A stretch of DNA of 47,066 nucleotides, filler included, from Jimgerdemannia flammicorona (GCA_003990765.1; 2 parts of 2 records of this genome joined end to end with filler, not necessarily neighbours in it), one strand, 5' to 3'. Numbered from the whole stretch's first letter, positions 7,604 to 26,145 are shown. The notes: a model not told the origin generated them from the sequence alone. Made by a program: numbers and translations.

Positions 7604-7732
7604 CTAAATATCATATAAATATAAATATTAGAAAGACTCATATACTCTACCATTTGCATAGCATCGACCCGCGTGCCTATTTTGTTTTTGTTTTTACACC
7701 ATAATCAACAAAACACATATCTTATGACATAC

Positions 7733-8090
7733 CAGAGGAAGACGTAGTATGGCGCTGTACTATAATAGATATATATTCATTGTCACCAAGTGAATTTGGA
7801 AATACCTTGGCAACTGAATCACTCTCGTGTAATATAGTAGCAGTTGTTGTCGTCGTAGGATCAACTATTTTCCATATAGAAGTTTCGTCGTTATGAAGGT
7901 GAACCTTCCACAACATGATATCCTTTACATCGATACCTTGGAATGTGTGTGGATAGCCCCTAGTTATGGTACTCTTGACGAACTCTATAGTCGAGGTCTT
8001 GTCAATGGTGACAGAGAATGGGCGACTGCCAGGATCGTTGTGGACCACACACCAGAGGGTTGTACCTCTTACTCTTAGTTTCCTAGACAT
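7733..8090 (-). CDS. Crinkler (CRN) effector N-terminal ubiquitin-like header; first exon of a probable CRN-CRN-FunK1 gene
   Basis: TLWCVVHNDPGSRPFSVTIDKTSTIEFVK...FQGIDVKDIMLWKVHL...VAKVFP...ISIIVQ matches the fungal CRN header (LFC.V...F.V.I...LWKV...HIIV). Ends TCT G|gtatgt at 7733/7732. Confidence 0.8.
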
Positions 8091-8663
8091 GACTGATAGT
8101 ACAGCATATATATATATATGAATATATAGCATCAACAATTAAATTCCTGAAATCTACTACTACTTACGTTGTTTGCAAAGAGTGTATTAGCTACCGAAGA
8201 AGCACAATGCTCTATTATGATTGAACTAAAAAGGACTCCAAAACATCTCTATTTTCGGAGATATATCACGAGATCTGGGTCTAGACTTGGCCCATTATTT
8301 TCAAATTTGGGTGTCAGTTCGCGTGATGTCATCATATACATATATATTACGGTCACAAGTTAATAATTGCAGAAATGCCTTTGTCCCAATTTCTTTCTCT
8401 GCACATTATAGTTAGCCATTGACTCGCACGGTATCACATGTAATCCCAGAGATCAATATATATCATTATCAGCTTGGCTGTCATTATTGCAAAATATATT
8501 AAATTGATTGATCAATCGGGTGGTGTTGATGCTCCGTTTTACTCTGTTTTTAAACCAAACGTATAAGCTACAACAAGCAGCAAGGTTTTGAACAATATTT
8601 GGAAAATCAGAGCAATGTTATCCCAATGCTATATATTATAGTGCAAGATGCCCTCCTTCAAAC

Positions 8664-12389: not shown

Positions 12390-13328
12390 TTAATCCAACT
12401 GCGGGTATTTCACATACTGGGCCTCAAGTTCATTAATAGCTTGATTGACTAGTTTAACATAACTACACGTGATACTCTTCTCCAAAAGAGGAGTCTTGAC
12501 GGTCTGGTGAATAGTACCCACTTGCTCTCGGAACTTGCTAAGGGCATTAGACATAAATATCAACTCATTTATGTGCACCACGCGTGCCTCCTCAAACGTC
12601 TGGAGCACGTCCAGGTTGTCAGTTAGTAGTTTCTTTTGCATGTGGTTTGCGCCCCAGTCATTCCAGACCTTTGCAAGGGATGCACTTTGTTCATATTGTA
12701 CATTGTTCTCTTTGACAATGACTTCGTAGGCTTTGGCGAGGCATATATCCATCTCTACGAAGTATTTGAGAACAATCCCCACCTGAGAATCGAGAATTTG
12801 CATGCCATTGTTCGCGTCAGTCATCGCATCCTCGAAAATTAATGCTAGGTTTGTCAGGAGCATGACATCGGTATCACTCTTCAGTTGCGTCAGATCCCGC
12901 CGAATCATCCGACTGCATTCGATGAGGAGGCGGAAAATGACAGCCGCCGTGGCCTCCAACGTTTCCATGCTGTAGGCTGCTTGAGTCGTGGCCTTCCACA
13001 GTTGATTCAACGAATTTACAAATATTCTCCTGTGGTCAGGACCCAAGTCCGAATGCTTAACCAGTGACTCGAGGTTGTGCATTGCCGACCGAGTTTTGAG
13101 CAACTCTTGACTATAATTCCCACGCAGGGCCAGGTCATAGGTCTGCACGGTCTCCAAGTGTGCATTGAGATGTGTGATTATGTTGTGGATTTCGATGAAC
13201 TGAGGAGGTGGTAGTAGCGTGCAGGCATGGCCGAGCACTTGCACCGCATTAAACTGACATATAATGTCAGTGGAAATAGGGAATAGGGCCAGGAGGCATC
13301 CGAGCCCTAGCACTAAACTCGACGCCAC
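12390..13328 (-). CDS. Hypothetical helical/coiled-coil protein with N-terminal hydrophobic segment; probable upstream exon reaching ~13540
   Basis: 312-aa ORF preceded by a ttttccag acceptor, with heptad-like helical composition. Confidence 0.6.
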   Translation of the reverse strand: MASSLVLGLGCLLALFPISTDIICQFNAVQVLGHACTLLPPPQFIEIHNIITHLNAHLETVQTYDLALRGNYSQELLKTRSAMHNLESLVKHSDLGPDHRRIFVNSLNQLWKATTQAAYSMETLEATAAVIFRLLIECSRMIRRDLTQLKSDTDVMLLTNLALIFEDAMTDANNGMQILDSQVGIVLKYFVEMDICLAKAYEVIVKENNVQYEQSASLAKVWNDWGANHMQKKLLTDNLDVLQTFEEARVVHINELIFMSNALSKFREQVGTIHQTVKTPLLEKSITCSYVKLVNQAINELEAQYVKYPQLD

Positions 13329-13573
13329 GATCGTGCGCCTGGAAAATAATATTTCTACAAATGAAATAATTGTTAGTTGATGATATACATAGCATTACTC
13401 CAATACGATCACCTAGTTTATGCAAACATATACCATACAAAACTAGAAATTTTCTAAGAACATAAGGCCACAATGATGCTAGTTTCTCAATGATAGGTGG
13501 CATTGTGATGAAGCTAGTGGCATCGTCGAACATATCCATGATAGTGATATATATATATGTGTTGTGATGTCGA

Positions 13574-13638
13574 TGTCGGGGAAAGTGCATTCACGTGGAC
13601 GGGATAATCCCGTCCACGTGAATGCACTTTCCCCGACA
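13574..13638. repeat. Palindromic element copy 1 (perfect; 32-bp arms around a central A)
   Basis: TGTCGGGGAAAGTGCATTCACGTGGACGGGAT-A-ATCCCGTCCACGTGAATGCACTTTCCCCGACA. Confidence 0.97.
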
Positions 13639-13912
13639 GACTTTACACGTGTGCGGGCTGAGGAATTTTTACAACAATCAAACTGGGTTAGTTATAACAA
13701 TGTAAACACCTAATGTATTGCCATATTGCATCGAAATCTGGATTATGCCCGTTTTTCTGTGCAACTCTCATATGGCGTTTAATAATTTCAAAAGAATAAA
13801 GAAAATGCGAGAGTTTTGTCAGGATATCGTTTCCTTGTACTATCCTCATTTATAAAGAGTTCACATGTTACCAGGTCATGAAATAATTATTGACATGACA
13901 AGCACAATAATA

Positions 13913-14812
13913 TTACAAAGCCCAATTTTCCAACATGTATGCTCCTCGCGACGCCTTCAAACACTCCTTATTAAAGCACAACTCAATTCCCCAATACGCT
14001 CTTGCACATTGATTCCCACAAACCTGGCAACACCCGCCCTTGAAACACGTCCTCAGCAGCCCTACGCTCGAGAAATTCAGGCCCCCGTGCACTAGCCTTA
14101 TCGCCTCCCCACATATCCTACAGCATTTCAGTACCCAACACTCTTCCACCTCACACACGGCATAGGCGTTTCTCCTCCCATCCATGGGGTCCTGCTTCCA
14201 GATGAGCCTACCGTTGCACGCCCAACACCGGTGGCCCTCGTGTGGGAAATAGTTTGGACAATCTACTACGTTGCAGTGGTACACCACTTCTTTAATTGAA
14301 AATTGCGAACAGGACTCGCACTGTTTGTAGTGGGGGCAGGCGAGTAGCGCCGATGATATGTCCAAGTACGGTTCGGAGGATGCAGATTGATGGTTTGTAT
14401 TCGGAAGGATGGTTCGCTCTTTGACTGACAATATCATAAAGGATGGTAGGGGGTTGGAGTGTGAAACTGGCACGTCGAGATCTAGACCCTTTGTGTGACT
14501 TTAAATACGTTGACATGTGTGGTATCTCCTTACCATCCATATAGGTCAGGTCGAAATATATATGACAATAATAATTGTTACCACAATTGAACGTAGGTTC
14601 GATTTTTGGATGCATTCCTAAATAATCCCACGATTTGGTGTACCATTCGACATTGGATATAACAATCGAAACATTTTAACAATGCGAACAATGCCAGCAT
14701 ATTGCCATATCACATCGGGATCTGGATTGTTGACAAAGAGAGCGAGTCCTTCTAGATTTATAGCTCGAAAAGTCGTCAATTGACAATATGGGTTGGGTTG
14801 TTGGCTCTCCAA
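13913..14812 (-). pseudogene. Cys-rich, putative zinc-binding protein gene, disrupted
   Basis: Many CxxC/CxxxxC pairs (CESC, CNVVDC, CWAC, CEVEEC, CRIC, CQVC, CFNKEC) in 13913-14473. The upstream ORF is broken by a TAG at 14618-14620. Exon structure uncertain. Confidence 0.5.
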
Positions 14813-15078
14813 TACTATACTGTATAAAATGCAAAGGACAGTTCAAAGCGTATATATGCTTTTAACTGATCAATTACAAGAGATATCAACGCAATTCGTT
14901 GCGTGATTGATGATATTCTGCCAGCGGACGAATGGGTTGTATGAGTTGTCGGCGAATATCGTTGGTACTTTGTTCATTGATACTCGATATACTCAATAGC
15001 GGCTGTATTCGGAATTTGTCCTCGCCTCCTATTATTTGACAACCAATGAAATGTGGAGCAGTAAATTGCTGTAATTAT

Positions 15079-15147
15079 AGCGTCAGGGAAAGTGCATTCA
15101 CGTGGACAGGATTATCCCGTCCACATGAATGCACTTTCCCCGATGCT
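15079..15147. repeat. Palindromic element copy 2 (34-bp arms, central T, CpG-type mismatches)
   Basis: AGCGTCAGGGAAAGTGCATTCACGTGGACAGGAT-T-ATCCCGTCCACATGAATGCACTTTCCCCGATGCT. Confidence 0.95.
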
Positions 15148-15200
15148 GACGCCATGACATGTGATCGATACAACCCCCAAGCCTCCTGAAACTGACCAAT

Positions 15201-15563
15201 ATGAAGATAAATATGACTAAAATCAAGGTCAAGGAGGAGATGAAATATATTGTTGAGTCTGGCGGACTAAGGGATGATGAACGTCATGGTGTAGTGGAAA
15301 CATTACCTGAATTTATCATCTTTACGGTTCGATGGTTGAACGACATGTCCCACACCATCAGGATAGCGAAGATGGCCGATATTGGTGAATTGTTGCACAT
15401 GCTTGAGACGCAGCATAATCCGAAAGGTAAAGATTTCATTCTGAAGAGGAAAGATGACAACAAACTTATCCCAATAGATGTCAACGATGAGAGCGTCACC
15501 CTGGAGAAACTTGAAGTCACTCCTCAGTGGATCCTTGTCATGGAGCCGGATCTAGAATCTTGA
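15201..15563 (+). CDS. Small protein with a probable ubiquitin-like (beta-grasp) domain
   Basis: FTVRW...HTIRIAKMADIGELLHML...FILKRK...DESVTLEKLEVTPQWILVME follows the Ubl/UBX pattern. AATAAA follows the stop. Confidence 0.55.
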   Translation: MKINMTKIKVKEEMKYIVESGGLRDDERHGVVETLPEFIIFTVRWLNDMSHTIRIAKMADIGELLHMLETQHNPKGKDFILKRKDDNKLIPIDVNDESVTLEKLEVTPQWILVMEPDLES

Positions 15564-15744
15564 GGTTCCGTGCGCAGCTGTAATCATGTATCAAAATAAA
15601 TTGTATGCTGCGCAGTCTGTTGACCCGGTTTATCGGATAATAAAAAGCCGGTTGGATTTACAATCATATCATAGACATTATGTTATACAACTAAACATAA
15701 AGACTCTAGATGAAACCACTTCATCATCATCATCTTTGTAACAA

Positions 15745-16477
15745 ATGGCATACCTCGAGTTACCATCCTTCTCAGACAAATTATATTTATCCCAAGCTTC
15801 CGATCTGACCCTATTAACACTATGCCTGAACACAGATCTGGCGCGCTTCAAATATGTCACCGGCAGAATCACTGAACTTATCATTCAATTGAGCACTCTT
15901 TTGCGAGATGACATCTGTCAAAATGTGCAGAACATTATCTCAAATCTTCCAAGATTAACGCATCTCCATGTCTTCGACATCATGCCTGGTCAATTTGAGA
16001 GAATCTTTACGAGCATCACAATCACATTCAAAGACCTTATTGAAATTCGACTGAGTCAGATTGTAGCTTCTGACGAATTCTTGGAATTCATTTCCAACAA
16101 TCCAAGTATTCAATGCGTGCAATTCACTGGTATATTATTATTGTGGTTTATGCCTTGGATATTTACATGCATAGGTTATATAACGGTTTTCTAACGATTT
16201 CTCCTGTACAGATGCCTTAGATTCGTCCCTGGATAATTCGTTTTTAATTCGGCTCATTCAGTGCTACCAGCTTCGGAAATTGATCATAACAGAGGCGCGC
16301 CACAACATAATATCATTCGACAACCTCGTAAAGGCGGCAGACGAATGGAAGGACAATTTTTGGTTAATAATCAGATATGATGATAATGAATTGTCGCCGC
16401 TACTGGAATGCACCATGTGTGGGTGGAATGGTAGTAATAGTTGTGTTTGCGATAATTGGAACGATGGTTCAACATAG
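15745..16477 (+). CDS. LRR/RNI-like protein, one intron (16130-16212)
   Basis: LPRLTHLHV, FKDLIEIRL, NPSIQCVQF, CYQLRKLII. Splicing G|gtatat...tacag|AT joins the two ORFs in frame. Confidence 0.6.
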
Positions 16478-16565
16478 TACGACGTCTCAACTTGTAATTT
16501 ACAACAGTCACATAATATAAATATGAGACACCCACATACACACATTTCCAATCTTTCAACTCAAT

Positions 16566-17156
16566 ATGCATGACACACTCGAACTCGACACATTGGAGTT
16601 TGAGAAGCACCTTCATGCACTGGAAATCCAGTTATACCGCCAAAAAATCCTCGATATCGACACCATCTTCAGGTATATAAAGAAACTCGAACATCGAATG
16701 AGATGGATAAATGTCAACCTTGCTGCTGTTCGGTATAACTTTAAACATATTGATGTGATACTGCCACGTGTGGAGAGGTTCATATTGAAGGTGGATGTGG
16801 TAAAGTCAGGACAGGAGCTGGTGTCCAAATGGAATACGTACGACGTGACCGCTTGGTCCTTGGTGCAGATGGAGTGGGGGAAAGCAGTTGCATGCATGTT
16901 TGGGAACATTATTAGAGATTTTGAAGTCGCAATCGCATATATGAGGTTTATGGAGAGAACGGCAGAGACAGCCAGAGCCAATCTCAGTAACATGGCTATT
17001 GTAATCAAAATGCGCCAGGCCCGGGATATATTCATCAAAGGCAATGGTGATAGACTGGCGAGGAAGACGGTTGAGGAGGCAGTTGGTGATGTTGAAATAT
17101 TTTTCGAAACAATTAAGGCAGATATTGAACGGCTGCAAAATGTACCCGAACGCTAA
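16566..17156 (+). CDS. Hypothetical alpha-helical protein, 196 aa, intronless
   Basis: Clean ORF followed by AATAAA. No family recognised. Confidence 0.6.
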   Translation: MHDTLELDTLEFEKHLHALEIQLYRQKILDIDTIFRYIKKLEHRMRWINVNLAAVRYNFKHIDVILPRVERFILKVDVVKSGQELVSKWNTYDVTAWSLVQMEWGKAVACMFGNIIRDFEVAIAYMRFMERTAETARANLSNMAIVIKMRQARDIFIKGNGDRLARKTVEEAVGDVEIFFETIKADIERLQNVPER

Positions 17157-17281
17157 ATGCTACATCTTTATTATAAAGTGTAAAATACAGTATTAAAATA
17201 AAAGGTACACACGTTTGTGTGTGTATATTTCCCATTATCAACTTGTTATTGGAGAATTCGGTAATACATAATAGCATACAC

Positions 17282-17360
17282 ACATCAGCGTCGGGGAAAG
17301 TGCATTCACGTGGACAGGATAATCCCATCCACGTGAATGCACTTTCCCCGATGCTGACGT
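17282..17360. repeat. Palindromic element copy 3 (39-bp arms, central A)
   Basis: ACATCAGCGTCGGGGAAAGTGCATTCACGTGGACAGGAT-A-ATCCCATCCACGTGAATGCACTTTCCCCGATGCTGACGT. Confidence 0.95.
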
Positions 17361-17906
17361 AGTAAATCGAACAAACCTTCCTCATGTTTAGTGAAGCTCG
17401 GGGCTTAAGTTAATCCTCAAAAATATTACCTATGACAAAATCGGAGGCTTTCTTTTGAAAGCCCCCTTTGTCTGCGAAAAGCAAGGAAAATATTCAGGAC
17501 ACAAGGATATACACAAAAAGAACCAGCTGCTCCAGAAGCGATCGAATTATATTTTTGTTACAAGAACAATACTGGAACATAGTCATGGTATCGGGGCCCG
17601 CAATTCAGCGTTAGTGATGATATACTGTGTCAAATCTGTTTCGAGCGGCAGTTGTTTGGTACAATGCTGGCGAAACCTGGTACCATCTACCTATATAGAA
17701 CCTGATCGCTCGATCGACGCCAATTGTATTACACCTTATAAATGACGACCGCATCAATTAATTCTTATCATGAATCTGTGTGCAGACGTTACAACCACGC
17801 TAGTGGATTGTGTAATCTGGAAAAATTCCTCATTAGAGAATAAACACATGCGTTTGTGTCAGGTTTAAATAAACAGGGACCGTAGTGTGTCTTGTCAACT
17901 GTTGAA

Positions 17907-18914
17907 ATGACAGAATCCGAAATTCCTGAGTTGGTGATGTTTCGTGATGTGTGTTTTGGTATACTGGAAGACGGGGGTGTGGTACCTCCAACACATCCAT
18001 CACAACATACCCCAGCAAATGTGTTACCTCAGACACTTCCACCACGACGTGCCCCAGCAAATGTTATACTAGAGGCTCTAATCAATCTATGGAATGACCA
18101 AACGGAAACTGCCAATGATGATGATGATGAGCATGCGCAAATGGTGAAAACATTTACAAAAGCGCTTACGTACTACACCCTCCACAAACCAATGGCACAA
18201 CTCATTACCGACCAGAAACAGGACCTGACGTACCTTGAAAAGCGCAACAGTGAGTTGCGCGTCAGGATAAAGGAATTGAAGGCGGGGAATGTGGCAGCCC
18301 AAGAAATTTCATCGGTGATGACAATGGATCGGTCACCAAAGCAAGCCGAATTGATATCGCGAGTGACGGATCGTGCAGTCAACGGGCGCGACAAAGGTAA
18401 ACCGCACAAGTATGAAACACTGGGATATAAATCTCATAGTGATCATTGCAAATTACATGGCTTTGACTGCAAGACTTACAAAAGGTATTTTATCTGTTTC
18501 GTGATTTCCGAATTGTGTGTGTGTTATCAATCAAACTTATTAGAGTATATATATGTCATAAGGTTCTACAATATAACAGGTGGCCTCCCAGTAGATATAC
18601 ATGGACCCCAGTTCCGATATTCCTTACATGCCAATACTGACAGTCGTTGGCGTTGGTTAGACCTTATGTCGAGGTATCAGAAGAGACATACCCTGCCCAC
18701 AGAGCCACCAGGGTTCTGGACCATGGACTTTTCCACCGAGGATAAGATCAAACAATAACAGGAGGATGGCAGACGCATCAATCGTGAAAAAAAGAAGTGG
18801 GAATGGTCGCCCTCACCTGGTATTGGGCACAGTCAACGTCACCGAACGCCACTGAAACGTCGATCAGGTTCACTGACTCTATCACCAATATCTGATTTTG
18901 AATATTTTGTGTAG
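17907..18914 (+). pseudogene. Hypothetical coiled-coil protein gene; probable intron ~18485-18562 and probable premature stop at 18756-18758
   Basis: The frame continues after the TAA (CAA TAA CAG) for ~50 codons to a TAG at 18912-18914, followed by AATAAA. Confidence 0.5.
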
Positions 18915-18990
18915 TTTAAGAACTATTGTTACTATTGGCAAATAAAATCGAATTCACACAATAAGCAATAACGTTAATCATGGCGTCGAC

Positions 18991-19053
18991 GTCGGGGAAA
19001 GTACATTCATGTGGACGGGATAATCCTGTCCACGTGAATGCACTTTCCCCAAC
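18991..19053. repeat. Palindromic element copy 4 (31-bp arms, central A)
   Basis: GTCGGGGAAAGTACATTCATGTGGACGGGAT-A-ATCCTGTCCACGTGAATGCACTTTCCCCAAC. Confidence 0.95.
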
Positions 19054-19180
19054 ACCACACGTGATATATGATTCTGCTTTAATAATTTGTAGATCATCGT
19101 CATTATGTCGACAAAATTGTAAGGCTTTATATATATATACACAACACAATTTTAAGGTACTAACAAATATACATATTATT

Positions 19181-19760
19181 ATGAATCTATTCAACGACAT
19201 TGGGGCCAGCCTTGGTGGTGTTACCATTGTGATTCTAATAGTCTTTGGGATTGTTACCATACCGCTCGATATCTACAACATAGTAAATGCCTCTAATGGT
19301 CTTAAAATGTACCCAATCATAGAACCATGTTGGGGTAGCGGACAGCTCTACACATTTCTAATCAGCGTCATTGTCAGTGCTGCGCTCTCTCTTGTCCACA
19401 TGCTTGCAGTCTGCTGTCGCTCAGAGCCGTCCAACAACCAACACTTGTCTAGTAGAACTATGGATAGTTTAACAGGCATGTTTTTGCTTATCTGGACTAT
19501 TATAGGTAGGCGACCTTATACACCCACCGCACTGCTGTGTCTGCCAGTTTGTCCAGGCTGTAACATATCCGTTTGAATTAGGTACTGTCTGGGTTTCGAG
19601 TGCCCGCTCATGCCAATCGGAATTTCTATTCTACTACGAAACGGTCATACGATCGCTCATAATCATGTACATTGACTGTGTAGTGGGATTGATCGTGGTT
19701 ATTTTTGGCCACTCAGCTCTATGTTGTATTAGGCTTAGTAATGCCCCCCCAACTGTCTGA
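19181..19760 (+). CDS. Four-TM membrane protein (TMEM272-like), intron 19506-19581
   Basis: The spliced product reads ...GMFLLIWTII|GTVWVSSARSCQSEFLFYY...IIMY and has four hydrophobic segments. Family assignment is from motif recall only. Confidence 0.65.
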
Positions 19761-19932: not shown

Positions 19933-21045
19933 CTAGCTCGTAGATGATGATATTGCTTGTGCAATTGTCAGACGCGTCAATGGGGTTGTGAGTTGCATGC
20001 TGCTCTGAGCTCCATCATCGTCCCACAGAGTGACCAACCAATGCACAGTGAGCATCCAAAGCAATTGCCGTTCTGGTCTCCCGAACGACGCCAGCTGCAG
20101 CACATCTGTTGGCCTGCTGTGCAGGAATCTGTGAAGACAGTTTACACCGACATCGTCAGCCATGTGGTTGCGCAGCTCGTCGTCAACGTCATCCACATGC
20201 AGGTGGGTGTAGAACTCGGGAGAGAGTATGTAGCTGAGAATCGCATCTGTGGTTGCTAGCATGTATCTAAACTTATCACTCAGATGCTTCAACATTCGCC
20301 GAAGCTGGTCTGGATGTCCGCCGGATGAGTTAAAGACGGCGTCCAAAATCACATTGTGGTCGACAGACTTCGCGACCTGTTGACCAACGAGGGCGAGTCG
20401 CGGTGTCACCACTGTAACTTCATTCCGTGTCAAACACAGCCATCGCATGCTCGTGGCACGGATGTACTGCAGTGGAAATATGTTGCTGTTGTGTTGATTG
20501 GGGTCAAGTCGCGACAGGAGTAGGATTTGCAGATGCTGTCCTGGCTCCACATGTAGATGCCACCAGAAGTACGGCACGTCCAGTCCAGACAGGATATCCA
20601 CATCGTCGATTATGAGGCGTACGGTCGAGTTTGCATCTGTGTGTTGCAGCCACGTTGTCATTGTTTTGGTTTTCGCGTGCCAGTAATTGCTGAACACCGT
20701 TTCTGGATTCGGTATCCTGCTGTTGATCACGAACTCTGACAGCGAAACATACATGACAGACTCCTCGTCATGCTGCAACCCAATATGCTCGATGAGCTTG
20801 TATGCAAGTACAGTTTTACCTGACGAAGGTGGACCACAGACAACAAGCACCTTACAGGTCTGCCAAAGATCAAACAGTCCAGTTAGTCGAAGCGGTGAAA
20901 TGTAACATGCATCGTTGATGGTAGTGTCTTTGACATTGTATCCATCGTCTGAGAACAATGGAGCCTGCACCTGACGTAACTTGGGCCTGTGTGGATGCCG
21001 AACTGGTACTCTTTTCAATATTCTCCCACTGCGAAGTGTTATCAT
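19933..21045 (-). CDS. P-loop NTPase (AAA+/STAND-like, resembling Crinkler-associated NTPases), intronless
   Basis: Walker A GPPSSGKT, Walker B LIIDDVD, and a GxP-type motif SGGHP. Confidence 0.75.
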   Translation of the reverse strand: MITLRSGRILKRVPVRHPHRPKLRQVQAPLFSDDGYNVKDTTINDACYISPLRLTGLFDLWQTCKVLVVCGPPSSGKTVLAYKLIEHIGLQHDEESVMYVSLSEFVINSRIPNPETVFSNYWHAKTKTMTTWLQHTDANSTVRLIIDDVDILSGLDVPYFWWHLHVEPGQHLQILLLSRLDPNQHNSNIFPLQYIRATSMRWLCLTRNEVTVVTPRLALVGQQVAKSVDHNVILDAVFNSSGGHPDQLRRMLKHLSDKFRYMLATTDAILSYILSPEFYTHLHVDDVDDELRNHMADDVGVNCLHRFLHSRPTDVLQLASFGRPERQLLWMLTVHWLVTLWDDDGAQSSMQLTTPLTRLTIAQAISSSTS

Positions 21046-23483: not shown

Positions 23484-23583
23484 NNNNNNNNNNNNNNNNN
23501 NNNNNNNNNNNNNNNNNNNNNNNNNNNTTAATTAATTAANNNNNNNNNNNNNNNNNNNNNNNNNNNNNNNNNNNNNNNNNNNN
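23484..23583. other. Assembly gap (100 bp) containing an artificial six-frame-stop linker TTAATTAATTAA (23528-23539)
   Basis: 44 N, then TTAATTAATTAA, then 44 N. Confidence 0.95.
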
Positions 23584-25693
23584 TTTTAACAGACTCAATG
23601 TCCTGTGGATTTTTATTAGAAGGAAACCTAGACTATATGGGCCAAACCCCTTCTCCACCACCCATCAAGCACTGCTCCCTTATTAATCTAGGCTAGCTAT
23701 TGTCCAGCAGCTCAACTATGCCAGGTACAGTAGGGCCTATGTTGACCTGCATCCCATTCTATATACTATACTCTCCCTACCACCAGAGGGAACCCAGCCA
23801 TATGCTAATGACCAAAAGCACATGCCCGAGACCCCAACATATATATAAGACCATGCTTGAGTTAAATAGAATAGCCTCTACCACCTCAAAGAGAATAATA
23901 GATAAAGAAAAAACCCCTATCAAAGTACATTATAGTGGATAGAGCCTGGTTCTTCCAGTTGAGATGAGTAAAGAACTTACATGTAAGGCAGGAGGAGACC
24001 CCCAATACTCCACTACTCAAGTCTACAGGCCTTGATCATATTGCTGTATCAGCTCCTAGTTCCAGTTGAGTGTAGTCAAGATATCTGAAATGAGTAGCCT
24101 CAGGCCCCCTGATCTCTCCCAATGACTGGGGCCCAACCTGCTGAATTATCAAAAGAAGCTAAGAGTATCACCTATCACTTAACTACTCTGCACCAATCAA
24201 AAGGCCCCATCAAAGCAGTACCTGCCCCAGCCCTGATAACTGCCCCCAGCCTAGCACCCTATTAGTTTACTGTTATCACCCTTCCTCCTATCTGTGACAG
24301 CCATCTCTCCTCCCATCCTGACAATACCCCAAAAGCAGTCACCTATACCAGAACTGTGCTTGCCAGGAAGCTCACCAAAGCCAGAGGGCCCCACTACAGG
24401 TACTGAGAACCTGCAGATAACCTATACTGAGCACTTGATGCCCAAGGTTGGCTGACTCTCTATATAGCCCATGATATACTGAAATAGTACCTTATTGGTG
24501 ATAGCAAAAGAAAGAAGATACTGTACCAAAACAGATATACTCTAGATATAGCCAAAGATACTAGAAACTATGAAAAAGTGGAGAAGATACCAATCTGATA
24601 CTGATAAAGAGGCAACTTATCACCATTGCCTTCTCTCCACTGTTCTGCAATATGTAGATACAGAAAACCAACCTAAGGTAGAGAGGGTAATAATTATAGA
24701 AAGTAGACTCAGAAGGTTATCTACCAAACCATTATGATCAGTAAGATAGTGGAGAAAGAGATATCTTCTTTCTTTTGCTATCACCAATAAGGTATTATCT
24801 TAGTATATTACAGATTATATAGAAAGTTAGCTGACCTTGGATGTCAAGTGTCTAGTATAGATTATCTGCAGGTTCTCAATACCTATAATAGGGCTCTCTG
24901 GCTTTGGCAAGCTTCTTGGTGAGTGCAGTTCTAGTATAAGTAACTGTTTTTCAGATATTATCAAAATGAGAGAGGAGGAGGAGATAGTTATTACAGATAA
25001 AAGAAAGGGTGATAATAGTGAACTAGTAGTATACTAGGCTGGGGGCAGTCATCGAGGCTGGAGTGGATACTACTTTGGTGGGGACTTTTAATTGATGTGG
25101 AGTAGTTAGGTAGTAGGTGTTACTCATAGCTTCTTTTGGTAATTCATAAGGTTGGACCCCAGTCATTGGAAGGAGTTAGGGGGACCTAAGGCTACTTATT
25201 TTAGATATCTTAACTATACTCAACTAGAACTGAGAGCTGACATGGCAATATGATTGAGGCCTACAGACTTGAGTAGTGGAGTATTGGAGGTCTTCTCCTA
25301 TCTCACATATAAGTTCTTTACTTATCTCATCTAGGAGAACTAGATTCTATCTACTATAATATACTTTGATGAGGGGTTTTCTTTATTTGTTATTCTCCTT
25401 AGAGTGATAGAGACTATTCTATTCAGCTTAGGTATGGCCTTATATATATGTTAGGGTTTCAGATATATGCTTTCAGTCATTGGCACATGGCTGAGTTCTC
25501 TCTGGTAATAGAGAGAGTATAGTATGCAGAATGAGGTATAGGCTCTATTATACTTAGTATAGTTGAGCTACTGGACAATAGCTAGTCTAGGTTAATAGGG
25601 GAGTAGTTCTTGATAGGTGATGGAAGAGAGTTTTGGCCTATATAGTCTAGGTTCTCTTCCAATAAAAATCCATGGGACTCTGAGTCAGTAAAA
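23584..25693. repeat. Long degenerate inverted repeat (arms ~23584-24520 and ~24762-25693, ~240-bp spacer); CpG-depleted relic of a probable transposable element
   Basis: Left ...gatttttattagaaggaaacctagactatatgggccaaa matches the reverse complement of right ttttggcctatatagtctaggttctcttccaataaaaatcc. Inner ends ccttattggtgatagcaaaagaaagaagata / tatcttctttcttttgctatcaccaataagg. Only ~2 CpGs seen by eye in 2.1 kb. Confidence 0.9.
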
Positions 25694-25921: not shown

Positions 25922-26003
25922 GCCAGCGTGTCCGAGTGGTTTAAGGAGTGGAGCTTAAGATTCCATGTCGTAAGATTCGTGGGTTCGAATCCCACCGCTG
26001 GCA
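25922..26003 (+). tRNA. tRNA-Leu (anticodon TAA)
   Basis: Acceptor stem GCCAGCG/CGCTGGC-A, A-box GTCCGAGTGG, anticodon loop CTTAAGA, long variable arm, GGTTCGAATCC, then a T-run Pol III terminator. Confidence 0.95.
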
Positions 26004-26145
26004 CTTTTTTTGTCCCAAGACGAAAAGTAATACTCTTATACCCACCGCAGTAGTTTTTGTAGTAACTGAGGTATATATACATGATCAATGTGACTAATGT
26101 GACTGCGGTGGCTTTAGTGTTTTCGTCTTCTGCTCGCCGTACATC

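Follow-up and report, generated by a model that had tools for sequence, protein, structure and literature searches.

Four near-identical palindromes stand between genes in a stretch of fungal DNA of 47,066 bases, filler included (hereafter the window), and the question raised by this locus is whether they part the cassettes of a gene-capture array or are copies of a small repeat. The array that they form spans ~5.5 kb, with centres 1507, 2208 and 1701 bp apart, and the segments between successive copies are called here modules A, B and C. The original prediction, drawn from the sequence alone, had offered integron-like recombination sites, junctions of hairpin-ended replicons or of an integrated virus, baculovirus hr-like origins and a palindromic mini-transposon as candidates. 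We favour the last of these. [quoted passage not shown] The palindromes are real and somewhat odd, and most likely a new family of a known kind; the reading of them as cassette or recombination sites is weakened.

All four centres and spacings that had been proposed are borne out, as is the perfect match of copy 1 over 32-nt arms (13574-13605 and 13607-13638) on either side of one central base. Copies 2-4 are self-complementary at 87-90% over 31-39 nt. A 28-nt half-site has eight matches at zero to two mismatches in the window and none in 100 dinucleotide-preserving shuffles, which places the palindromes far beyond chance. Self-blastn at word size 7, an nhmmer profile of the arm and a transition-tolerant scan recovered no further copy, intact or degenerate, from the window; in the nhmmer search the eight arms have E values of 2e-14 to 3e-11, and the next best match has E = 1. 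Near-identity extends over 77-79 bp and then ends abruptly in unrelated flanks, as expected of a discrete copied unit and not of a short conserved regulatory motif. Open reading frames (ORFs) running across the copies arise as a side effect of the sequence that the copies share.

The boundaries of each copy (Table 1) were set by the extent of homology across the eight arms. Repeats of about 30 bp, as first described, agree with the 32 nt next to the centre that are common to all arms; six arms reach further, to 34 nt (copy 2, left), 38 nt (copy 3, both) or 44 nt (copies 1 and 4, left; copy 2, right), and the size range of 63-79 bp narrows to 77 or 79 bp. The repeat unit can be described as a 65-bp core, with homology extending over about 77 bp in each copy. 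Copies 1 and 4 are laid out alike, copy 2 is mirrored in both its long arm and its centre base, and copy 3 is symmetric, from which it follows that the unit is slightly asymmetric and present in both orientations.

Past 44 nt, homology between arms does not rise above a shuffled null, and this includes an apparent outer CACGTG of several arms. Exact CACGTG boxes occur at 13646 and 19058, respectively 40 and 36 nt from the centres of copies 1 and 4 and just beyond the short arm of each, and a CATGTG lies just beyond the long arm of copy 2. It may be that the arms were longer in the past and have since acquired insertions or deletions, a suggestion to which the outer boxes give no statistical support. 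The palindromic centre is displaced from the middle of the copy by 6 nt in copies 1 and 4, by 5 nt in copy 2 and by 0 in copy 3, and total length still stays at 77-79 bp; we estimate ~6 chances in 100 of such near-constancy if arm lengths were paired at random. A circularly permuted unit was considered as the cause of the fixed ~77-bp length and rejected, as a comparison by hand found that the part missing from the short arm is not complementary to the 6 nt that follow position 38 in the long arms. None of the models that we tried explains a near-fixed copy length with a shifting centre.

The differences among the copies are almost entirely of one kind, as the original prediction had remarked. 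Across eight arms of 32 nt there are 14 departures from the consensus, all of them transitions and 13 of them at CpG; by count, 13 of 32 CpG dinucleotides have been hit, as against 1 of 192 non-CpG positions. Another repeat of the window offers a measure of this process. A non-coding inverted repeat (23585-24520 and 24762-25693; ~2.1 kb overall) has arms of ~935-940 bp that are 80% identical and separated by a 241-bp spacer; it adjoins assembly N gaps at 23484-23527 and 23540-23583. Its arms differ by 165 transitions and 14 transversions, many in a CpA/TpG context, no CpG is intact in both arms, and its observed/expected CpG ratio is 0.53-0.54 versus 0.84-0.91 across 12-21 kb, around the palindromes. 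This repeat bears what reads as the signature of a hypermutation driven by methylation or resembling repeat-induced point mutation (RIP), in a Mucoromycota genome. The loss of CpG there implies that repeats of this genome suffer C-to-T hypermutation, a fate that the palindromes share. Scaled to the inverted repeat, the single non-CpG change of the palindromes is about the neutral expectation by our arithmetic, and on these counts the copies appear young and unconstrained, not conserved. DIM-2-like DNA (cytosine) methyltransferases have been reported for Endogonales (excerpt of PMC9963178). In the mechanism that we propose, the genome would treat the copies as repeats and methylate their cytosines, and the copies would now be decaying by deamination of 5mC, from CpG to TpG or CpA.

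This pattern of decay bears directly on the possibility that the palindromes are regulatory sites. CACGTG (the E-box) is a basic helix-loop-helix (bHLH) site, and there are two such boxes per copy; 6 of the window's 17 CACGTG lie inside palindromes and 2 more within 40 nt of them. Moreover, every copy is upstream of at least one gene start, and two copies are within ~90 nt of one. Such an arrangement could describe a symmetric double E-box enhancer, or a bidirectional promoter, through which the neighbouring genes are regulated together and which selection maintains. We regard this as quite unlikely, for the E-box CpG has already been lost to transitions in 2 of 8 arms, a rate like that of the other CpGs (11 of 24) and hence no sign that the boxes are protected, identity over 65-79 bp far exceeds what a binding site needs, and youth accounts for the conservation of non-CpG positions. 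MITEs characteristically favour sites upstream of genes. If the copies are repeats of that kind, two CACGTG boxes near gene starts could still have an incidental effect on transcription.

Table 1. Palindrome copies and neighbouring genes in window coordinates. Arms are given as left/right; dG and z refer to the predicted single-strand hairpin folding of each copy.
Feature	Position	Strand	Length	Centre (base)	Arms (nt)	dG (kcal/mol)	z	Remarks
Gene 0	12390..13541	-						Helical protein of an Endogonales/Mortierellales family; left of copy 1, which its 5' end faces
Palindrome copy 1	13562..13638		77 bp	13606 (A)	44/32	-44.7	-13.4	
Module A ORF	13913..14615	-	174 aa from 14437					Cys-rich orphan; possible upstream exon
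Palindrome copy 2	15079..15157		79 bp	15113 (T)	34/44	-29.8	-9.1	
Module B ORF 1	15201..15563	+	120 aa					Possibly ubiquitin/SUMO-like; begins 44 nt past copy 2; codon score 0.22
Module B ORF 2	15745..16477	+						Two-exon orphan gene, intron 16130-16211 (our model); codon scores 0.14, 0.12
Module B ORF 3	16566..17156	+	196 aa					All-helical orphan; codon score 0.20
Palindrome copy 3	17283..17359		77 bp	17321 (A)	38/38	-39.5	-12.3	
Module C gene	17907..18758	+						Ctp1/Sae2/CtIP orthologue, between copies 3 and 4; in-frame intron 18485-18562
Palindrome copy 4	18978..19054		77 bp	19022 (A)	44/32	-26.5	-6.5	
ORF right of copy 4	19181..19576	+						Orphan with hydrophobic stretches; begins 127 nt past copy 4; codon score 0.09
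NTPase gene	19933..21045	-						AAA/NACHT-like; right-hand conserved neighbour; Pfam AAA 25.6 bits

The genes around the array, whose models throughout are our own, tie the locus to Endogonales, the source of the nearest proteins and in keeping with the earlier assignment to a fungus. Gene 0 (12393-13082) is 91% identical to Jimgerdemannia flammicorona BC936DRAFT_148688; its family has eight representatives in an exhaustive search, Endogone and Podila among them, and over its whole length the ORF at 12390-13394 is 35% identical to Endogone protein P0007. With the start codon modelled at 13539-13541, copy 1 lies ~21-65 nt from the likely start of gene 0, and the placement of all four palindromes between genes, as first described, is upheld. 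On the right, the nucleoside triphosphatase (NTPase; 19936-21045) is 84-90% identical to three J. flammicorona proteins (86% to BC936DRAFT_148686, 90% to BC938DRAFT_480651).

The gene of module C, labelled coiled-coil in the original prediction, proved to be that of the DNA-repair factor Ctp1/Sae2. It matches BC936DRAFT_148687 and BC938DRAFT_480650, the latter at 188 of 220 aligned residues; these orthologues were the only two matches among 2420 candidates in one search with a mixed alignment of five module ORFs. On exon 2 of module C the C-terminal SAE2 domain (PF08573) reaches 20.6 bits, above the cut-off of 19.8; the two J. flammicorona orthologues give 26.3 and 23.8 bits. BC936DRAFT_148686 (NTPase), _148687 (Ctp1/Sae2) and _148688 (helical) carry consecutive tags on one 44,358-bp contig, and BC938DRAFT_480650 and _480651 both lie on one 12,394-bp contig. 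It follows from this placement that the order helical gene - Ctp1 - NTPase is common to J. flammicorona, which we call the sister taxon. Because Ctp1 is flanked by the same two neighbours there, module C is a resident DNA-repair gene and not a mobile cassette, and palindromes 3 and 4 fall between genes whose order is conserved.

Several features of the module C gene itself deserve mention. Where BC936DRAFT_148687 has Q, the window has a TAA (18756-18758), beyond which the frame is open for 52 more codons, to 18915; the C-terminal motif reads RYQKRHTLP...FS, where J. flammicorona has RHRRRHTPP (RHRRRYTPP in the BC936 protein) and FP. This stop and the changed motif may reflect relaxed constraint or a paralogous copy. 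A 42-nt tandem duplication in the coding region (17978-18064; 2.1 copies, 82% matches) repeats a proline-rich stretch that the J. flammicorona orthologues have as well. Ctp1/Sae2 helps to open hairpin-capped breaks, and perfect palindromes are normally fragile. That perfect palindromes flank the gene of a hairpin-processing factor is probably a coincidence. By exact look-up, none of eight window ORFs is present in the protein collection that was searched.

Conserved gene order also speaks to the concern that the array is an artefact of assembly or library construction, for example an untrimmed palindromic junction adapter that joins unrelated fragments. The window is a scaffold with N gaps, and palindromic linkers exist in mate-pair libraries. 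We nevertheless find this scarcely credible: unlike an adapter, the copies vary in arm length and carry CpG-specific transitions, the gene order across the array agrees with J. flammicorona, and the palindrome has no blastn match in plasmid or vector records, nor in phages.

Modules A and B present a different picture. Their ORFs, together with the one to the right of copy 4, belong to no Pfam family, and these five have no homologue among 5.8 billion proteins, a collection in which two J. flammicorona proteomes and Endogone are represented; the three conserved genes (gene 0, Ctp1 and the NTPase) do have homologues there. Neither tblastx nor BLASTP detected paralogy between modules, and two module proteins have no viral relatives in viral contigs. 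We scored codon usage with a frame-specific measure trained on other genes of the window, six of which score 0.11-0.24; the module B ORFs fall inside that range and the ORF right of copy 4 close to it. On this scale module B looks like real, host-like coding sequence without a counterpart in the annotations of relatives (Table 1), and the module A ORF is ambiguous (-0.05). For module B ORF 1, the original ubiquitin-like label survives as a language-model lead, its nearest named Atlas clusters being Rad60-SLD/ubiquitin at 0.87-0.88, and goes without a Pfam family or homologue; the Atlas returned nothing usable for the Cys-rich ORF of module A. The leucine-rich-repeat label given to module B lacks Pfam support, and BLASTP showed no paralogy between ORF 2 and the other leucine-rich ORFs of the window. 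A homologue search with module B ORF 3 scored 0 of 118 candidates. A single-sequence AlphaFold2 model of this protein is all-helical at a predicted local distance difference test (pLDDT) score of only 43, and that of the Cys-rich protein of module A reaches 48; both are too poor to use. The module A ORF is bracketed by a ~75-bp direct repeat (13670-13745 and 14657-14735; ~75-80% identical with one indel, ~985 bp apart), whose arrangement suggests a separate insertion or duplication event within that segment.

These orphan segments leave room for an alternative in which the centre of each palindrome is the meeting point of two element ends or half-sites, and segments A and B are lineage-specific DNA that entered between gene 0 and Ctp1, as the DNA with the orphan ORF right of copy 4 may also have entered next to a conserved gene. 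Elements bounded by terminal inverted repeats of 32-44 nt could have inserted into the centre of an existing copy, or recombination could have occurred at a symmetric, hairpin-forming site. The centre of the palindrome is invariant and homology fades outward from it at varying distances; the orphan ORFs lack homologues while the three conserved genes have them, tags 148686-148688 are consecutive in J. flammicorona, and codon usage in module B is gene-like. The centre, moreover, reads GGGA-TAA/TTA-TCCC, and TWA is the target of PIF/Harbinger elements. Against this, module C, a conserved gene in a conserved neighbourhood, is bounded in just the same way. Nowhere in the window do the outer arms of copies 1 and 4 find a partner arm, the two arms bounding a given module resemble each other no more closely than arms taken from different modules, and the centre triplets on either side of A and of B differ (TAA versus TTA). 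The sites show no constraint, no recombinase or transposase was found in the window ORFs scanned, and absence from annotation is not absence from DNA. We hold junctions of this kind to be doubtful. The integron-like cassette array of the original prediction is weakened by the fixed position of module C, the unconstrained CpG decay and the enzyme searches that follow, though less so for modules A and B, whose ORFs have no homologue in the protein collection.

We scanned the window ORFs with Pfam in 77 runs (18 + 9 + 50, a few ORFs being scanned more than once) and found no transposase, tyrosine or serine recombinase, protelomerase, HUH nuclease, replication or viral family. The lack of any such enzyme fits a non-autonomous element. 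It counts against the proposal that the palindromes are viral origins of the hr type, or else junctions, either of hairpin-ended replicons or of a virus or giant element that has integrated. Here the parallels would be the poxvirus concatemer junction and the hairpin plasmids of Rhizoctonia, and what recommends the idea is only a formal likeness between a perfect palindrome and a replicated hairpin telomere. Codon usage and composition are host-like, the host gene order is conserved, and neither the palindrome nor the two module proteins have relatives in viral contigs. This proposal is already largely refuted and very improbable, and the viral and baculovirus variants put forward at the outset find no support in the Pfam scans or viral-contig searches. 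Nor did the palindrome pattern match metagenome contigs (as a half-site or as a gapped two-arm pattern) or prokaryote contigs. A 17-nt core string occurs in no paper searched, and the literature searched on repeats of Jimgerdemannia, Endogonales and Mucoromycota and on fungal palindromes describes no such element, which the repeat annotation of the genome paper (Chang et al. 2019) may list.

Taken together, a mobile repeat explains the discrete unit, its presence in both orientations, a CpG decay shared with the neighbouring repeat, the conserved gene order and the lack of an enzyme gene. It also fits a repeat-rich genus, Jimgerdemannia genomes being reported at ~240 Mb with more than 77% repeats (excerpt of PMC10386755). 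The unit would have been copied to four or more intergenic sites near promoters within one gene-poor stretch of 5.5 kb, either by a transposase supplied from elsewhere in the genome or through hairpin- or gene-conversion-mediated events, with local re-insertion. The genes between the copies would then be resident chromosomal genes, not cargo set by the palindromes.

Certain observations sit poorly with a mobile repeat, which leaves missing target-site duplications (TSDs), uneven arms and tight clustering unexplained. Within 3 nt to either side of the homology boundaries of the four copies we found no direct repeat of at least 3 nt, and with symmetric boundaries set at 28-60 nt no flanking direct repeat of at least 4 nt except for one 4-nt chance match at copy 4. 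The original prediction had likewise seen neither TSDs nor a transposase, and both points are confirmed by this boundary test and the Pfam scans. Because the four copies lack the TSDs that define a MITE, we do not file the family as a proven one. The unequal outer ends (44/32, 34/44, 38/38 and 44/32 nt) indicate no defined terminus; four copies within 5.4 kb of a 47-kb window have p ~0.006 under uniform placement, by our arithmetic; and no autonomous partner appeared in the Pfam scans. A dispersed family is assumed, and no copy beyond these four was found in the window or in the collections searched. Finally, a palindrome sits at three of the four places where a conserved gene gives way to an orphan segment, an arrangement that random insertion does not predict and that may or may not be meaningful, given the limits of annotation noted above.

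Some of the same points lend themselves to a local, non-mobile duplication, in which one ancestral palindrome spread by palindrome-provoked breakage and repair or by ectopic gene conversion and no genome-wide family exists. The strict clustering, with no other copy in 47 kb, and the lack of a TSD speak for it. Variant sharing among the copies is also reticulate, which would fit conversion: variants L5 and R31 are common to copies 2 and 3, two changes of copy 4 recur in copy 2 once the latter is flipped, and arm positions 33-34 set copies 1 and 4, which read TC, apart from copies 2 and 3, which read CT. Conversion, however, needs prior homology at each site, and none is visible past the unit; the CpG-specific decay, in turn, suggests targeting as a repeat, which comes more easily to a multi-copy family. 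We judge local duplication to be unlikely and retain the mobile repeat as the preferred explanation.

The remainder of the window gives the genomic setting. Its left half holds lineage-specific gene types (Ank with F-box, BTB, fungal kinase, Crinkler N-terminal domain and NTPase), and its right half housekeeping genes (ubiquitin-L40, ribosomal L30/L7 and Utp10/HEATR1). The Crinkler effector N-terminal domain (PF20147, E 3e-14) is encoded by an ORF at 7722-8138 on the minus strand, amid Ank/F-box, BTB and fungal-kinase genes. Rfam and tRNA scans of the window detected only a tRNA-Leu (25922-26004).

If the palindromes are an ordinary small repeat, their value is modest: they would add a new palindromic non-autonomous family for Endogonales, a lineage of plant-symbiotic fungi that is rich in repeats and little studied, and a clean if small case of CpG-specific decay, pointing to very short repeats as targets of 5mC. 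Were the copies instead to mark insertions of orphan genes, they would provide a concrete mechanism for the local gain of lineage-specific genes in a fungus, and if their centres were true junctions, the locus would be a eukaryotic gene-capture array in an early-diverging fungus.

We compared the palindromes with known systems, and they failed the tests applied here for integron, Helitron, foldback and viral elements. As in an integron attC array, repeated hairpin-forming sites part unrelated genes. Unlike in such an array, the scanned ORFs of the window include no integrase or recombinase, the gene of module A is read from the minus strand and those of B and C from the plus strand, there are three ORFs in module B, and the genes have introns and presumably promoters of their own; one 'cassette' is a conserved housekeeping gene in place, and the perfect palindromes are decaying freely. 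PIF/Harbinger-Tourist elements have a TWA target and GG...CC termini. If modules are taken as units, the triplet between abutting ends here is TAA/TTA, as in those elements, but the triplets on the two sides of a module mismatch, the termini would be TCCC...GGGA, and the window has no transposase or Myb-like partner. Helitrons begin with 5'-TC, end with 3'-CTRR, carry a short hairpin 10-12 nt before the 3' end and insert between A and T. This candidate was rejected, as TC follows A only at the left end of copy 4, CTRR occurs at no end and the stem is at least 32 nt long. So was a hairpin-telomere replicon or viral concatemer junction, there being no protelomerase, resolvase or viral core family and nothing in viral contigs.

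Foldback and other long-inverted-repeat elements come closer, in that the whole palindrome is an inverted repeat predicted to form a hairpin or cruciform, and the window also holds the ~2.1-kb non-coding inverted repeat with 935-bp arms. The palindromes differ from them in being much shorter and in lacking a TSD, and Tandem Repeats Finder reported no tandem subrepeats in the arms of any copy. The mimp elements are MITEs in the promoters of effector genes of Fusarium oxysporum. With these and other MITEs the palindromes share being small (77-79 bp, well within the usual limit of ~800 bp), non-coding, near-identical inverted repeats (arms 87-100% complementary over 31-39 nt), intergenic and promoter-proximal, beside small lineage-specific genes and without a transposase of their own; they differ in having no TSD, no spacer other than a single central base, uneven outer ends and no known autonomous partner. 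Bacterial repetitive extragenic palindromes (REPs) and the mosaic elements built from them (BIMEs) are mobilized by REP-associated tyrosine (RAYT) HUH transposases (excerpt of PMC3733652). Like them, our palindromes are TSD-less and extragenic, lie between genes in both orientations and are locally clustered; unlike them, they occur in a eukaryote, are two to three times longer, stand 1.5-2.2 kb apart instead of tens of bases and have no HUH gene in the window. By analogy, then, the palindrome would work most like a MITE, and as a TSD-less extragenic palindrome it resembles the bacterial REP.

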